From positions 1-13,076 of the forward strand of contig JANYCR010000053.1 in NCBI GenBank assembly GCA_025360185.1: DNA of 13,076 nucleotides, read 5' to 3'. The DNA is from Leptospiraceae bacterium. GTDB taxonomy: Bacteria; Spirochaetota; Leptospiria; Leptospirales; Leptospiraceae. The stretch's first letter is position 1; every line of letters starts with the position of its first letter. Shown piece by piece: positions 7,918-13,076 of this stretch. A program made the position numbers and the translations under genes. The notes under the pieces were generated by a model. The model had not been told where the DNA came from and made no database searches. It was given only the letters and a program-made list of their open reading frames with translations.

Positions 7918-8304
7918 ATGAAAGTAAAAATTAGCGTCTTGTTAGCGAGTATTGTTCTTGTAGCAGGATTATATCCAAATGATTTCGGCTCCAATTTCAT
8001 TTCGTCGCTTTCGTCAGGAGATTGTAAGGGAATCGCAAGCAAAGACAAGAGCTGGTGCACTACAAACGATTGTAAAGCAATTGCAAGCGGAGACAAAAGT
8101 TGGTGCCAGTCAAGCGACTGTAAAGGAGTAGCGGCTAAAGACAAATCATGGTGTAGTTCAAGTCTTTGCAAAGCATGGGCATCAAGTGATAAAAGCTGGT
8201 GTAACGATAGCGATTGTAAAGGAGTAGCCTCAAAAGATAAGTCCTGGTGTAGTTCAGCACAGTGCAAAGCAATTGCAAGTGGTGATAAAAGCTGGTGCAA
8301 TTAA
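7918..8304 (+). CDS. Secreted Cys-rich tandem-repeat protein (signal peptide + 6 x 16-aa 'DCK[GA]xASxDKSWCxxx' modules)
   Basis: - Strong RBS AAGGAG at 7903-7908, 9 nt before ATG 7918.
- N-terminal 'MKVKISVLLASIVLVAGL' is a Sec-type signal peptide (no lipobox Cys).
- Then six modules each with Cys-x10-Cys (12 Cys in total), rich in K/S/D/W.
- Codon-level repeat conservation implies a real ORF. Confidence 0.7.
   Translation: MKVKISVLLASIVLVAGLYPNDFGSNFISSLSSGDCKGIASKDKSWCTTNDCKAIASGDKSWCQSSDCKGVAAKDKSWCSSSLCKAWASSDKSWCNDSDCKGVASKDKSWCSSAQCKAIASGDKSWCN
8020..8301 (+). repeat. Six tandem 48-nt coding repeats (last one 42 nt) with alternating A/B subtypes (96-nt super-repeat x3)
   Basis: - Repeat units start at 8020, 8068, 8116, 8164, 8212 and 8260.
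- Odd units encode CKG(I/V)A(S/A)KDKSWC; even units encode CKA(I/W)AS(G/S)DKSWC.
- There are no spacers, so this is not CRISPR.
- The 129-aa minus-strand ORF 7911-8300 is a mirror artefact of this repeat. Confidence 0.9.
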
Positions 8305-8316
8305 TCCAACCGTTTA

Positions 8317-11067
8317 TTGGAAGATGGATATAAGTCATTGAGTAACGAAAACGAATCTATTCTAGAATTAAAAAATGAAATTGAACTTTTAAAATTAGAA
8401 AAAGAAGAGCTAAATAGATTCTTTTCACTAAATTTAGATTTACTTTGCATTGCTAACCAGGAAGGTAATTTTCTTAAATTAAACAAGTCTTGGGAGTCAA
8501 TTTTAGGTTATCCGCTAGAAGAATTACAAAACCAAAAATTTTTTAATCTAATTCATCCAGAAGATTTACAGTCAACGAATGATGCATTGGCAAGGCTAGA
8601 TGCCAGCCAACCGGTCTTAAATTTTGTAAACCGCTATCGTCACAAGAACGGGACGTATAAATTTTTAGAATGGAGTGGGCAACAGTATGGTAAATTCATT
8701 TATTGTACTGCAAAGGACATTACAGAACAAATCGAAATTCATAGTAAGATTCAAAAAAATGAAGAGTCTCTTCGTAAAGCTCAGAGTCTTTCTAAAATAG
8801 GAAGTTGGGAATTTGATCTAATCAGTTTTGAATTAATTTGGTCAGATGAACATTATAAAATCTTTGAATTGGAAAAGCAACCCTCCGATAAATTATATTC
8901 TGCCTATCGATCAAAAATTCATCCAGATGATATTTCTGCCTTAGATAAAGTCGTAAATGATGCGATCGAAAGCGCAGCAAACTTTGTATATGAGCATAGA
9001 GTTATTTGTAAGGATGGAAGTATTAAAAAAGTAGTCGGAATCGGAGAAGTAATTAAGGATAATAAGAATAAGCCGATTAAACTACACGGAACTGTTCAAG
9101 ATATTACAGAGCGCGAAATTTCAGAAATATCTTTGCAAAAAAAAGAGCAACAATTACGTCTCGCACTCAGTGGGGGAAACCTCGGAATATGGGAATGGAA
9201 TTTTTCGACTGGTAAATTAGAAGTAGACGACCGCTGGATGGCAATTCTTGGATTGGATAATGACCATAAACCTACAATAGAATCTTGGAGTTCCCTTGTT
9301 CATCCGGAGGATATTGGCAAATTAGATATTCTCGTTCAAGAAGTAATCCTAAATCCTTTTGGCACTTCCTTCGAAACAGAGATACGAGCAATGCATAAGA
9401 ATGGCAATTATATTTGGATTTTAGACAAAGGCGCAGTTGTAGAAAGAGATAAGGATGGTAAGCCACTCTATATCATTGGTACTCATATGGATATTACGGA
9501 AAGCAAAGAGGCGCAGCGAACTTTAAGTTTGCGGGAAAAATCTTTAGCTGCTATATCACAAGGAGTTCTATTGACTGATCCGAATCGAAAAATTACCTAC
9601 GTGAACAAAGCCTTTGAAGAAATTACCGGTTACACTGAAGCGGAAATGTTAGGGCAAACATGCATTATGCTGCAAGGTAAAGAAACAGACCAGGCTACGG
9701 TTCTTGCAATTCGTGCTGCATTGCAAAACCATGTACCTATACAAACCGAAATTTTAAACTACGCCAAAGATGGTAAAACATTCTGGAATCTCTTGGCGAT
9801 TTCTCCTGTATTCGATGCGAGTGGAAAATTAATCCAATTCGTAGGAGTGCAAAAAGACATCACAGGAAGAAAGCAAATAGAAATCGAACTCATCCAAGCA
9901 AAAGAGCAGGCGGAGGCGGCAAATCGTGCTAAGTCGGAATTTCTTGCAAATATGAGCCATGAGATACGAACGCCTCTCAATGCAATCATCGGCTTCACAG
10001 ATTTACTCACTCTCTCAAATCTAAATGATACGGAGAAACAATATTTAAACATAGTATTTCAATCTGCAAATTCGCTTTTAGAATTATTGAATGATATATT
10101 AGATTTTTCTAAAATAGAAGCAGGAAAGTTGGAGCTTCACCTTGAAAAGGTTGATCCATATGAATTGCTTAAGCAAGTAACAGATATACTTAAATTCAAA
10201 GCCCTGGCTAAAGGAATTAAAGTATTTTTAACCAGTCCAGTAAATATTCCCCATTTTATCTGGACTGATCCGATTCGACTGCGGCAAATTATGATAAACC
10301 TGTTAAGTAATGCAGTAAAATTTACAAACCATGGCGAAATAGAAATAAAAGTAGAAGTAAATGATCATAACCCGCACGATAATACTTCTAATCTTCATTT
10401 TTCTGTAAGGGATACAGGGATAGGTGTATCTAAAGAAAATCAAGAAAAAATATTTGAAGCATTCTCTCAGGTAGATAGTTCAAACAATCGTAAATTTAGA
10501 GGCACTGGACTCGGGCTTACAATTTCAAATGACTTACTGGCACTCATGAATAGCAAATTAGAAGTAAAGAGTGAACTCGGTGTTGGCAGCATATTTTATT
10601 TTTCCCTATCTGTAAAAATAGAATATGCAGAAAATATTTATATGCAACCTAATAGCCCCGAAAATAAAACTCTGCTCGAAAGTAAATTTAAGATTCTGCT
10701 TGTAGATGATGATCTATTAAATCTAAGTTTAATAAAAACTATTATCAGAAATATTCTGCCTAATGCAATTTTATTGGAAGCTAGTAATGGTAGAGAAGCA
10801 GTTGAACTTTTTATAAAAGAGCAACCGGATATTATTTTCATAGATATTCAAATGCCAGAAATGAATGGACATGAGGCAACAAATACAATTCGAAAATTAG
10901 AAACAAATAAAAAAATACCGATTATCGCAGTCACAGCTGGCGTCACCGATGGAAATAGGGATAAATGCTTTGCATGCGGTATGGATGATTTTACGAGTAA
11001 GCCTGTAACAAAAACAAAGCTTAAACTTCTACTCCAGAAGTGGCTTGTAACAAAAGCATTGCAATAA
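8317..11067 (+). CDS. Cytoplasmic multi-PAS / LOV hybrid sensor histidine kinase (PAS x3 - LOV - HisKA - HATPase_c - receiver)
   Basis: - 916 aa; the only available start is TTG at 8317 (no in-frame ATG for about 300 codons).
- The frame is continuous with the upstream repeat gene, interrupted by its TAA at 8302-8304.
- N-terminal coiled coil, then PAS-like blocks.
- LOV-like domain around nt 9550-9870.
- H-box 'EFLANMSHEIRTPLNAIIGF' (His codon 9958-9960).
- HATPase 'LLSNAVKFTNHGEIEI', 'DTGIGVS', 'GTGLGLTIS'.
- C-terminal receiver 'ILLVDDDLLN', 'IIFIDIQMPEMNG' (Asp codon 10843-10845), 'IIAVTAG', 'DFTSKP'.
- No TM segments. Confidence 0.85.
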   Translation: MEDGYKSLSNENESILELKNEIELLKLEKEELNRFFSLNLDLLCIANQEGNFLKLNKSWESILGYPLEELQNQKFFNLIHPEDLQSTNDALARLDASQPVLNFVNRYRHKNGTYKFLEWSGQQYGKFIYCTAKDITEQIEIHSKIQKNEESLRKAQSLSKIGSWEFDLISFELIWSDEHYKIFELEKQPSDKLYSAYRSKIHPDDISALDKVVNDAIESAANFVYEHRVICKDGSIKKVVGIGEVIKDNKNKPIKLHGTVQDITEREISEISLQKKEQQLRLALSGGNLGIWEWNFSTGKLEVDDRWMAILGLDNDHKPTIESWSSLVHPEDIGKLDILVQEVILNPFGTSFETEIRAMHKNGNYIWILDKGAVVERDKDGKPLYIIGTHMDITESKEAQRTLSLREKSLAAISQGVLLTDPNRKITYVNKAFEEITGYTEAEMLGQTCIMLQGKETDQATVLAIRAALQNHVPIQTEILNYAKDGKTFWNLLAISPVFDASGKLIQFVGVQKDITGRKQIEIELIQAKEQAEAANRAKSEFLANMSHEIRTPLNAIIGFTDLLTLSNLNDTEKQYLNIVFQSANSLLELLNDILDFSKIEAGKLELHLEKVDPYELLKQVTDILKFKALAKGIKVFLTSPVNIPHFIWTDPIRLRQIMINLLSNAVKFTNHGEIEIKVEVNDHNPHDNTSNLHFSVRDTGIGVSKENQEKIFEAFSQVDSSNNRKFRGTGLGLTISNDLLALMNSKLEVKSELGVGSIFYFSLSVKIEYAENIYMQPNSPENKTLLESKFKILLVDDDLLNLSLIKTIIRNILPNAILLEASNGREAVELFIKEQPDIIFIDIQMPEMNGHEATNTIRKLETNKKIPIIAVTAGVTDGNRDKCFACGMDDFTSKPVTKTKLKLLLQKWLVTKALQ
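9550..9870 (+). other. LOV (light-oxygen-voltage, flavin-binding) domain within the hybrid kinase, reactive Cys retained
   Basis: 'VLLTDPNRKITYVNKAFEEITGYTEAEMLGQTCIMLQGKETDQATVLAIRAAL...EILNYAKDGKTFWNLLAISPVFDASGKLIQFVGVQKDIT' compared with the canonical LOV pattern:
- '..ITDP...IVYVNDAF..LTGY..EEVLGRNCRFLQG.DTD' (Cys codon tgc 9661-9663).
- 'LNYTKSGKKFWNL', matched by ours.
- 'FIGVQLD', matched by 'FVGVQKD', including the conserved flavin-contacting Gln.
- Deviation: 'GQTCIMLQG' instead of 'GRNCRFLQG', so the Arg and Phe after the Cys are not conserved. Confidence 0.7.
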
Positions 11068-11070
11068 TTT

Positions 11071-11766
11071 TTAACCCATTCTCTTTTTTAATTCAGAATA
11101 AACTTTTCTTGATACAGGAAGCTCTGTTTCATTTTTTAATTCTAAAGTATATTTTCCGCCCGTTTTAGATTTAAGAAACTTTCCTTCCCGTAAATTAACC
11201 AAGTAGGATTTGTGAATTCGAAAGAAATGCGAGGGCAAAATTTTGCATAAAGAATCTAGAGTTTTACGATGAGTATCCGTTTCTCCATTTTTGCGATGAA
11301 TTAGAGTATAATTATCCTGACCTTGAATATAGCAAATTTCTTTTATGGGGATAATTTCTATTTTGTCCTCCTTCTTTACACTCAGGAATTTAGTATAACG
11401 AGAATTTGCCGCTAAATTTTTCCATTTTTGCAATGCTTTAGTAAGACGTTCTTTATTTATAGGTTTCGGAACAAAATCTAAAACACCAAACTCAAAAGCC
11501 TGGATTGCTTTTTCTGTCATTCCTGAAACGATAATAGTATGAAAAGACTCAGCGATAATATTTCTAAGCAGGTCAAATCCTTCTCGCCCATCCAAGTTTA
11601 AATCTAAAAAAACAAGATCAACCGAATGCTCCTCTAAAAAACACTCAGACCCAACAAGACTACGTTCCATTTTTAAAGAGGTAATTTCTTTTCCATAAAT
11701 TTCTCGAAGCAATTTTTCTAAGCCTCTTGCGGCTACTGCCTCATCTTCCACAATTAAGATTCTCAT
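11071..11766 (-). CDS. LytTR-family (LytR/AlgR/AgrA-type) response regulator
   Basis: - 231 aa. N-terminal receiver: 'MRILIVEDEAVAARGL', 'VDLVFLDLNLDGREG', 'TIIVSG', 'LDFVPKP'.
- C-terminal LytTR DNA-binding domain: 'IPIKEICYIQGQDNYTLIHRKNGETDTHRKTLDSL...FFRIHKSYLVNL'.
- RBS GAGGAA upstream of ATG (reverse complement of 11770-11776).
- Its stop is 3 nt from the stop of the convergent LOV kinase. Confidence 0.9.
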   Translation of the reverse strand: MRILIVEDEAVAARGLEKLLREIYGKEITSLKMERSLVGSECFLEEHSVDLVFLDLNLDGREGFDLLRNIIAESFHTIIVSGMTEKAIQAFEFGVLDFVPKPINKERLTKALQKWKNLAANSRYTKFLSVKKEDKIEIIPIKEICYIQGQDNYTLIHRKNGETDTHRKTLDSLCKILPSHFFRIHKSYLVNLREGKFLKSKTGGKYTLELKNETELPVSRKVYSELKKRMG

Positions 11767-11806
11767 TTTTATTCCTCTAACCTTGATTGAATATTGGTGA
11801 AATGCA

Positions 11807-13076
11807 TTAGGATACTATCGTAATGCCGCTTTCCCATCCGCCCTTGACGGGTTTAGAGTAAAATTCCCATTTGCCGGGAAATGCTTCTTCTAGCCTTGAT
11901 CGAATATATTTTATCCCAGTGCCTGAAGTTTCTCTCGATGACTCGACAGGCAAGCCATCATTGAATAAAATAAATCTAGTTTTCTTGCCATCAAGTTTTT
12001 TAGTTAAAATAAATTCGCCCGATTTTCTTCCAGGATAACCATGAGTAACTCCATTCTCGACAAGCGTATGTAAAGCAACAGGCGGAATTAGCTCTTTGCC
12101 GCTAATGTCTTCTGTCCTAAGCGAAAACTTAACATCTTTTCTAAGGCTCATAATTTCTAAGTATCGTTTGCAAATTTGAATTTCCTCTGAAATGAAAATT
12201 GTTTTTTTATTAGAAAGTTTTAAAATATAATGAAGCTCATCGGAGAGAGCAGATAGAAGTTTCTTCGCGTTAGCCGGATCTTCATCGAGCCAGATAATTG
12301 TAGCATTAATGGAATTAAGTAAAAAATGAGGATGGATATTACTTTTTAAAAGCTCGACCTCCATTCTAGCAGAAACAAGTTTTGCGTCTTGGGACTCCTG
12401 CCTGTAATAAGAAGCTCTCTCTTCTGCTTTTGTTTTTTCGCGGTTAATAATTGTAATCTTGTAGGCAAGCCCTAGAGATAGAAGGCACATCTCGACCGCA
12501 GAACCAACCTGTAATCCATACTCCGTAAAGGTATTGGTTGGAAAAATTCCGAGTCCTTTAAAAGCATAAATCCCTACTCCAAAAAGAAGAGAAACCCAGG
12601 CGATAATAAAATACCGCGCCGGCTTATAGCCCTTATCCCAACATACAATCCCGACTATAAAAATAGAAATTGCAAATACAATGACAAGACTTGCAAGTAA
12701 ATAAATATTTACAAAGTAAGAAAAAATAAAAGAGGATAACATAAGTAATCCCATACAACCCATCAAAATCTTTTGTAATTTATCCAGAAAAGGAACGTTT
12801 TTCTTGGAGTTTAAAAAACTTCTAGTAAACTGAATTCCCCAGAGAAGCGCAAATCCTCCCAGGAAAGGCAAACTGATATTAGCCCAATACGGAGAATTAG
12901 GCCAGAGGTATTGAAATGCTAATCCATTAAGTATTGACTGACTCGCTCCGTAATTGATTACATAGAGCAGGTAATAGAAATAACCAATATCACGAAGCAT
13001 AAAAAGTAAAATCAAATTATAAACAATCAAAACGAGTAAAATTCCATAATAAACACCAAAGGCAAATTCTTCTCTC
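11807..13076 (-). CDS. LytS/YehU-family multi-TM sensor histidine kinase (N-terminus beyond window end)
   Basis: - Six or more hydrophobic TM segments.
- After them, the His_kinase internal region with H-box 'HPHFLLNSINATI', characteristic of the LytS/YehU/7TMR-DISM kinases, and a C-terminal HATPase ('LIPPVALHTLVENGVTHG', 'GTGIKYIRSRL').
- The frame stays open upstream of the track's TTG 'start' at 13030 to the window edge ('...REEFAFGVYYGILLVLIVYNLILLF'), so the gene is 5'-truncated by the window.
- 40 nt upstream of, and on the same strand as, the LytTR regulator. Confidence 0.85.
   Translation of the reverse strand, partial: REEFAFGVYYGILLVLIVYNLILLFMLRDIGYFYYLLYVINYGASQSILNGLAFQYLWPNSPYWANISLPFLGGFALLWGIQFTRSFLNSKKNVPFLDKLQKILMGCMGLLMLSSFIFSYFVNIYLLASLVIVFAISIFIVGIVCWDKGYKPARYFIIAWVSLLFGVGIYAFKGLGIFPTNTFTEYGLQVGSAVEMCLLSLGLAYKITIINREKTKAEERASYYRQESQDAKLVSARMEVELLKSNIHPHFLLNSINATIIWLDEDPANAKKLLSALSDELHYILKLSNKKTIFISEEIQICKRYLEIMSLRKDVKFSLRTEDISGKELIPPVALHTLVENGVTHGYPGRKSGEFILTKKLDGKKTRFILFNDGLPVESSRETSGTGIKYIRSRLEEAFPGKWEFYSKPVKGGWESGITIVS

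Follow-up and report, generated by a model that had tools for sequence, protein, structure and literature searches.

A candidate LOV photosensor of a non-canonical short-loop subtype in a multi-PAS hybrid histidine kinase of a Leptospiraceae bacterium

The stretch of DNA analysed here (the window) is the complete 13,076-bp contig JANYCR010000053.1 of a Leptospiraceae bacterium (assembly GCA_025360185.1), and window coordinates are used throughout. On its plus strand lies the gene for a hybrid sensor histidine kinase of 916 amino acids (aa) with four PAS domains, the fourth of which (aa 412–518, positions 9550–9870) belongs to the LOV clade by sequence and predicted fold. This fourth domain probably works as a LOV photosensor that gates the soluble kinase; it represents a non-canonical subtype with a short loop. 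The gene, its domains and the residues discussed below are as follows.

8317–11067 (+), hybrid sensor histidine kinase gene, 916 aa, TTG start, no predicted membrane segment noted
8422–9501 (+), three PAS_3-type PAS domains at about aa 36–140, 141–270 and 271–395 (Pfam PAS_3, 7.6e-59, several stretches; boundaries approximate, taken from an alignment of kinase orthologues)
9511–9558 (+), A′α-like N-terminal flanking helix of the LOV module, AQRTLSLREKSLAAIS (helix at residues 2–14 of the 135-aa query in the AlphaFold2 (AF2) model, superposing on MrLOVe)
9559–9864 (+), LOV core, Pfam PAS_9 at aa 415–516 (3.9e-38; also supported by phmmer, AF2 and Foldseek)
9574–9591 (+), shortened Aβ–Bβ loop TDPNRK, aa 420–425, with R424 at 9586–9588 (from alignments)
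9652–9678 (+), variant LOV motif GQTCIMLQG, aa 446–454, with Cys449 at 9661–9663, I450 at 9664–9666 and Q453 at 9673–9675
9712–9714 (+), R466 on Fα, equivalent of YtvA R79, the retained phosphate-binding Arg (from alignment columns; role from PMC3836802)
9757–9789 (+), N481 (9757–9759) and N491 (9787–9789), equivalents of YtvA N94 and N104, which hydrogen-bond the isoalloxazine (from the alignment)
9850–9852 (+), Q512 on Iβ, equivalent of YtvA Q123, which contacts flavin N5/O4 and relays the signal (from the alignment)
9856–9960 (+), DIT motif (aa 514–516) and 31-residue helical linker to the phospho-accepting His548 (9958–9960); helix after DIT in the AF2 model
9928–10125 (+), HisKA (DHp) domain, aa 538–603 (Pfam, 1.1e-22; H548 lies within SHEIRTPLN)
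10264–10614 (+), HATPase_c catalytic domain, aa 650–766 (Pfam, 1.5e-27)
10693–11028 (+), receiver domain (Response_reg), aa 793–904 (Pfam)

These Pfam domains agree with the initial annotation of the window, which had proposed three PAS domains followed by LOV, HisKA–HATPase and a receiver (REC). They also give the layout of a LOV histidine kinase (HK): a LOV core, the DIT motif, a helical linker, a DHp domain with its H-box His and a catalytic ATPase (CA) domain. The LOV module is the last of the four PAS domains and sits directly on the HisKA DHp. In the receiver, D843 (10843–10845, in FIDIQMP) is likely the phospho-acceptor, as assigned by motif. Pfam detected no histidine phosphotransfer (HPt) domain in the 916-aa kinase, so that a separate phosphotransfer partner would be needed, and the NCBIfam models that matched it were generic kinase and PAS models only, all below their cut-offs.

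Identity of the fourth PAS domain

The domain reads LLTDPNRKITYVNKAFEEITGYTEAEMLGQTCIMLQGKETDQATV...ILNYAKDGKTFWNLLAISPV...FVGVQKDIT. The LOV signature quoted for it in the initial annotation is essentially correct, except that the strand reads LTDP, not ITDP, and the PAS_9 profile check suggested there returned the strong match listed above. When aa 403–533 were compared with all PDB sequences by phmmer, the best match was CagFbFP of Chloroflexus aggregans (Cagg_3753, 6rhg; E = 2.3e-29, ~50% identity), and the top ~50 matches, which include CagFbFP, YtvA, YF1, Brucella LOV-HK and phototropin LOV2, are all experimentally established LOV domains. An AF2 model was built on an alignment of short canonical LOV proteins (listed matches of 127–159 aa) among 47 candidates obtained with a 118-aa domain query; it reached a mean predicted local distance difference test (pLDDT) score of 86.8 and contains both the N- and the C-terminal flanking helix. 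Compared with the PDB by Foldseek, the model was closest to MrLOVe (9vf7), a Meiothermus LOV domain with both flanking helices (template modelling (TM) score 0.90), and the 50 PDB matches listed were all LOV domains or LOV fusion proteins. The best sequence matches and the predicted-fold matches thus uphold the earlier proposal that the fourth PAS domain is a LOV domain.

CagFbFP, the best single-domain match, shares the fold (root mean square deviation 1.4 Å over 104 residues of the AF2 model), and its parent protein, named 'multi-sensor hybrid histidine kinase' by the depositors, is of the same protein class as the window kinase. It differs in its canonical GRNCRFLQG motif and longer Aβ–Bβ loop (TDAGADQPIVFVN), where the window domain has GQTCIMLQG and TDPNRKITYVN. 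The LOV histidine kinases of Brucella abortus, Caulobacter and Pseudomonas (3t50, 6ph4) resemble the window protein in carrying LOV on a histidine kinase (E ~1e-23, TM 0.74–0.80). In the Brucella protein, however, LOV is N-terminal and followed by PAS (LOV-PAS-HK constructs), the motif is canonical and the kinase is of the HWE/HisKA_2 type, whereas in the window protein a LOV domain with a variant motif is the last of four PAS domains and adjoins a HisKA DHp.

Across the motif the DNA reads GGG CAA ACA TGC ATT ATG CTG CAA GGT, which translates as G-Q-T-C-I-M-L-Q-G; the codons TGC ATT ATG, with the Cys codon at 9661–9663, confirm the C-I-M deviation reported at the adduct position. C449 aligns to YtvA C62 and AsLOV2 C450. 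Among 22 motif and pocket positions compared in the YtvA alignment, 17 are identical (T30, G59, C62, L65, Q66, G67, V75, I78, R79, L82, N94, N104, L106, I108, F119, G121 and Q123 in YtvA numbering) and five are changed: V28L, K60Q (the variable 'x' of the motif), N61T, R63I and F64M. The polar contacts to the isoalloxazine are all kept, N481, N491, Q453 and Q512 corresponding to YtvA N94, N104, Q66 and Q123; in the pair of phosphate-binding arginines, the R79 equivalent is kept (R466) and the R63 equivalent is I450. The adduct Cys and flavin-contacting Gln claimed earlier are therefore in place (C449 and Q512, and also Q453), and a pocket lacking most of its key residues, which the initial annotation had named as grounds for dropping the LOV assignment, is not what the alignment shows: both Asn, the Gln and a phosphate Arg (R466) are all present. 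That annotation had placed the deviation just after the Cys; it is broader, comprising also N to T before the Cys and an Aβ–Bβ loop that is three residues shorter than in YtvA and lacks D36/N37.

The short-loop subclade

Every PAS domain of 270 proteins was scored separately before a neighbour-joining tree was built; separate scoring was needed because ranking by summed scores put giant multi-PAS proteins into the top 150. On this tree the window domain and 11 others are monophyletic, and all 12 have an Aβ–Bβ loop with a length of 9, against 12 in YtvA, and retain the Cys. Within its six-member nearest group the motifs are GQTCIMLQG (window), GISCKFLQG (P0004), GRSCAVLQG (P0268), GRTCRVLQG (P0247), GKPCSILQG (P0155) and GKSCNVLQG (P0256). 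The positions that are invariant across the alignment of these six domains include the Cys (C51), LQG, both Asn, the Iβ Gln and the loop Arg (R26; R424 in the window). We define the short-loop subclade here by monophyly, a loop three residues shorter than in YtvA, the loop Arg, the Cys and the motif [S/T/N/P]-C-x-[F/L/I/V/M]-L-Q-G; the window domain has all of these traits.

A search with the six-domain alignment against one genome per GTDB species returned at least 550 relatives, and among the best 80, which were examined, 73 are of the short-loop type. The subclade spans Betaproteobacteria, methanotrophs, Verrucomicrobia and Planctomycetes, with hosts such as Rubrivivax gelatinosus, Rhodocyclus tenuis, Azonexus caeni, Rhodoferax, Methylobacter and Methylomonas, the Verrucomicrobia Chthoniobacter, Terrimicrobiaceae and Opitutaceae, and the planctomycete Schlesneria. 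Residue counts over the 73 short-loop domains are given below.

Cys position: C 68
Residue before the Cys: S 33, N 18, T 10, P 6
Residue after the Cys: A 25, S 18, R 11, K 10, N 4, others 5; non-basic 52
Loop Arg site: R 55, K 2
Second Arg (YtvA R79) site: R 54, K 12 (66 of 73 basic)
First Asn (N83): N 73
Second Asn (N93): N 69
Iβ Gln site: Q 41, T 19, L 9

These counts indicate selection on the Cys and on the ring contacts in the subclade, but none on the canonical post-Cys Arg. On the same comparison, the deviation characterizes a large subfamily and is not peculiar to the window protein.

The loop arginine R424 may be a relocated phosphate ligand that stands in for the lost post-Cys Arg. 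In YtvA, D36 of the Aβ–Bβ loop contacts the guanidinium of R63 (PMC3836802), so that by analogy R424 would adjoin the phosphate site. At least one of the two sites, loop and post-Cys, is basic in 64 of the 68 Cys-bearing short-loop domains; the post-Cys basic residue was lost on a loop-Arg/Lys background in 43 of 47 cases, and R or K after the Cys is kept in 8 of 12 domains that have no loop Arg/Lys. The association is nominally significant (Fisher p = 0.006, uncorrected), but it is largely carried by a few clades on the tree, with few independent events, and we therefore keep it as a working hypothesis only.

Tolerance of R to I near the phosphate has its best precedent, by analogy, in PpSB1-LOV R66I and PpSB2-LOV of Pseudomonas putida, natural and engineered LOV domains which have fewer Arg–phosphate salt bridges, bind flavin mononucleotide (FMN) and show a faster photocycle (PMC6047819). 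In PpSB1-LOV R66I the removal of one such salt bridge left the 447/390 nm photocycle in place and made dark recovery ~100-fold faster (PMC6047819); R66, however, lies on Fα, not after the Cys, and the Arg of the NCRFLQ motif is intact in both proteins. With an Arg–phosphate salt bridge lost and N changed to T at a ribityl contact, a weaker grip on the phosphate and faster dark recovery than in a canonical LOV domain would be expected in the window domain.

Short-loop domains are joined to varied outputs, namely PAS-GGDEF-EAL (Rubrivivax, Rhodocyclus), an ETR1_N hybrid kinase (Methylobacter), HisKA_3 (Azonexus) and a HisKA hybrid kinase (Schlesneria), which is the usual behaviour of a modular sensor. 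In the PAS-GGDEF-EAL protein of Rubrivivax gelatinosus DSM 1709 (L019) the motif is GSSCALLQG. The Methylobacter protein (Methylobacter psychrophilus Z-0021, locus L032, 2795–6853) is a 1353-aa hybrid kinase in which ETR1_N (1e-32) and a short-loop LOV-type domain (GKSCAILQG) occur together with HisKA, HATPase, REC and HPt, an arrangement that may serve to sense ethylene/copper and light in combination. A 735-aa metagenomic protein (P0125) carries three consecutive short-loop LOV-type domains at residues 318–695, all with the Cys (NCRFLQ, NCKFLQ and NCKFFQ) and each with the Iβ Gln replaced by N or T.

Sensor exchange, proposed mechanism and alternatives

The window kinase was compared with four orthologues, P0002, P0003 and P0004 (from metagenomic loci L003, L002 and L001, respectively) and P0007. 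The slot between the third PAS domain and the DHp is filled by LOV in both the window protein and P0004 (69% identical) and by an unrelated PAS domain in P0003 (22% identical), and is empty in P0002, the closest orthologue overall (73%), and in P0007. According to this family comparison, the spacing from DIT to the phospho-accepting His is exactly 31 residues in all five proteins, so that modules appear to have been exchanged or deleted from DIT to DIT with the helical register undisturbed. Such constancy fits signalling through the PAS–kinase coiled coil, a mode known from YF1 and kinases related to it (PMC13322254). YtvA and YF1 (2pr5, 4gcz) are similar in this respect, since in YF1 DIT is likewise followed by a helical linker into the DHp (TM 0.84–0.85 to 4gcz) and the Jα coiled-coil signalling model applies (PMC13322254); the effector differs, since in place of STAS or FixL the window protein naturally has a receiver-bearing HisKA hybrid kinase. 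P0004 and P0007 have a MASE1 membrane module instead of two N-terminal PAS domains.

Identity between the window protein and P0004 is 69% over LOV, 67% over DHp, 65% over the third PAS domain (PAS3), 58% over REC and 51% over CA. No other segment is conserved as well as LOV, which speaks for purifying selection and makes recent acquisition or decay less likely. GC content is 0.37–0.41 over PAS3, LOV and DHp against 0.32–0.33, a rise that is not specific to LOV; together with conservation against P0004 at the level of the neighbouring domains, this leaves a recent horizontal acquisition of the LOV cassette without support.

We propose that the domain would work as follows. A flavin, most likely FMN, would be bound non-covalently and held by R466, and probably also by the loop residue R424 in place of the lost post-Cys Arg. 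Blue light would produce an adduct between Cys449 and flavin C4a; Q512 on the β-sheet would read the change, and the signal would run from there through DIT and the 31-residue helical (coiled-coil) linker to the DHp helix, altering autophosphorylation of His548 and transfer to the fused receiver (D843). The rebuilt phosphate pocket would probably bind phosphate less tightly and recover faster in the dark. Beyond the LOV identity, fold, pocket conservation, subfamily membership and linker register described above, we infer flavin binding, the adduct, the role of R424 and both the existence and the direction of light control.

Besides the few clades that carry the loop-Arg covariation, several observations weigh against a working photosensor. 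The full GXNCRFLQ consensus, which serves as definition or filter in LOV censuses (PMC12202551, PMC4428443), is absent, GQTCIMLQ matching four of its seven specified positions (N to T, R to I and F to M). Of the four residues with which YtvA coordinates the ribityl chain and phosphate (PMC3836802), two, N61 and R63, are changed. Ile follows the Cys in none of the 73 short-loop relatives, only in the window protein. AF2 confidence is lowest at CIMLQGKETD (mean pLDDT 66), where no helix is called. Orthologues without LOV (P0002, P0007) or with another PAS domain in its place (P0003) exist, so light input would be dispensable for the core kinase. RprR of Ralstonia shows that a LOV-motif protein need not give a light phenotype (PMC12802281). 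Finally, a literature search found no experimental work on the window protein or on any member of the short-loop subclade, and nothing relevant on LOV domains with a residue other than Arg after the Cys or on LOV in Leptospira, Rubrivivax, Methylomonas and similar taxa.

Three other explanations were weighed against the photosensor. The one that survives best, although we regard it as unlikely, is a flavin-binding sensor of redox state or oxidative stress, like the PAS domains of MmoS and NifL that bind flavin adenine dinucleotide (FAD), in which the Cys is kept for redox chemistry or incidentally. The short Aβ–Bβ loop is common to the FAD-binding PAS-A of MmoS (ITDLQGRILYAN), a redox sensor of Methylococcus capsulatus (3ewk) whose tandem PAS domains have a generally PAS_9-like sequence; the phosphate pocket is altered; the organism stems from wastewater-type metagenomes, and relatives are found in many non-phototrophic soil and sediment taxa; and the RprR precedent of a LOV-motif protein with little light phenotype applies here too. 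On the other hand, MmoS has H in place of the adduct Cys (GQDHRIVNSG) and lacks LQG, and the window's immediate group keeps the Cys, both Asn and the Iβ Gln, a set specific to LOV photochemistry. With the subclade profile MmoS scores only 77 bits per domain against 143 bits for CagFbFP; its second rank with that profile is the sum of two weak domain matches, and we rejected it as the closest relative. An outright MmoS/NifL-type identity as a FAD redox PAS domain was discarded on the same scores and on the presence of the Cys.

Slightly less probable still is a LOV-derived PAS domain that no longer binds flavin and acts as a structural or dimerization spacer or binds another small ligand, the lost Arg and Asn marking decay of the cofactor site. 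Three substitutions clustered in the Cys-bearing Eα motif, the low model confidence there and the dispensability of the cassette among orthologues would fit such decay. It is opposed by the intact ring-contacting residues, by LOV being the segment best conserved against P0004, and by the relaxed motif recurring, with its Cys, in 68 domains spread over at least four phyla; had the site been decaying, joint retention of C, N, N, Q and R would not be expected.

In fungal FAD-binding LOV domains an Eα–Fα insertion accommodates the adenine. The least probable of the three, a working LOV photosensor with a rebuilt phosphate pocket that uses riboflavin or FAD instead of FMN, could draw on the lost R63- and N61-equivalent contacts, on a shorter loop that may open the pocket mouth and on the ability of YtvA-LOV to take riboflavin, FMN and FAD in vitro (PMC3836802), but R466 is kept, R424 is available for the phosphate and no Eα–Fα insertion is seen in the alignment.

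Gene neighbourhood and significance

The gene order in the window is CheW–CheA–CheB–HATPase protein–REC–MVP-like–(small Cys-rich open reading frame)–kinase, and the next gene, which lies on the opposite strand, encodes a LytTR regulator; MVP denotes the major vault protein. This order is conserved in the metagenomic contigs L002 and L003, and L001 keeps only the pair of MVP-like gene and kinase. At 90% identity the window's CheB clusters with several proteins named 'Leptospiraceae bacterium', and the nearest homologue that carries a LOV domain is in a cluster of that name too. Two features lie directly upstream of the kinase.

5402–7891 (+), 829-aa MVP-like protein (MVP_shoulder 3.5e-24, Vault_3, Band_7; no NCBIfam match)
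7918–8304 (+), 128-aa Cys-rich repeat open reading frame (ORF), with a hydrophobic N-terminus followed by ~8 copies of a ~16-aa unit, DCKGIASKDKSWCxxS

The initial annotation had set the kinase gene beside an MVP homologue. The MVP-like gene is indeed upstream, but the 128-aa ORF sits between the two. An MVP-like gene directly precedes the kinase orthologue in four of four loci (L001 7397–9898, L002 3485–5974, L003 5234–7723 and the window, where the small ORF intervenes), and L002 has an ORF of 127 aa in the place of the small ORF. The MVP-like gene, the 128-aa ORF and the kinase are separated by gaps of 27 and 13 nt, which points to co-transcription. In the 128-aa ORF, Tandem Repeats Finder detected periods of 48 and 96 nt, and neither Pfam nor NCBIfam gave a match; a long antisense ORF over it (7911–8300, −) is probably a by-product of the repeat.

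Further upstream, a chemotaxis-like cluster (2–5305, +) comprises a C-terminal fragment of a methyl-accepting chemotaxis protein whose gene is cut by the contig end, CheW, CheA, CheB, a 415-aa HATPase_c-only protein (3678–4925) and a CheY-like receiver (~4940–5305), an order kept in L002 and L003. Downstream, 11071–13030 (−) holds the convergent LytTR response regulator (231 aa) and a 7TMR-DISM/His_kinase (LytS-type) sensor, which is N-terminally truncated relative to the 614-aa version in L002, where 7TMR-DISMED2 is added.

Blue-light optogenetics draws mainly on LOV domains, and catalogues of them have relied largely on the GXNCRFLQ motif. That multi-sensor hybrid kinases can contain a LOV domain is already well known; what is new here is an apparently uncharacterised short-loop subtype and the polymorphism of the cassette that carries it. 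In its widest form the proposal is that short-loop domains are an unrecognised, phylogenetically wide LOV class in which the NCRF Arg is dispensable because an Arg of the shortened loop took over the flavin phosphate, that motif-based censuses under-count LOV domains, that cofactor preference or photocycle speed may differ, and that Leptospiraceae kinases gain and lose light input as a register-preserving cassette; we put this forward tentatively, as possible but doubtful in full.

If the photosensor reading is true, the working definition of a LOV domain would widen to take in a subtype that keeps the Cys and dispenses with the Arg and Asn of the motif. This subtype would also offer a natural series of phosphate pockets that differ in the residue after the Cys (Ala, Ser, Asn, Lys or Ile) and could be used to tune cofactor affinity and dark recovery, and it is present in cultured organisms (Rubrivivax gelatinosus, Rhodocyclus tenuis and Methylobacter psychrophilus). 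The kinase family is a natural experiment in which sensor modules are swapped on a kinase with the coiled-coil register unchanged. For the uncultured Leptospiraceae lineage itself, the finding would add a candidate blue-light input.

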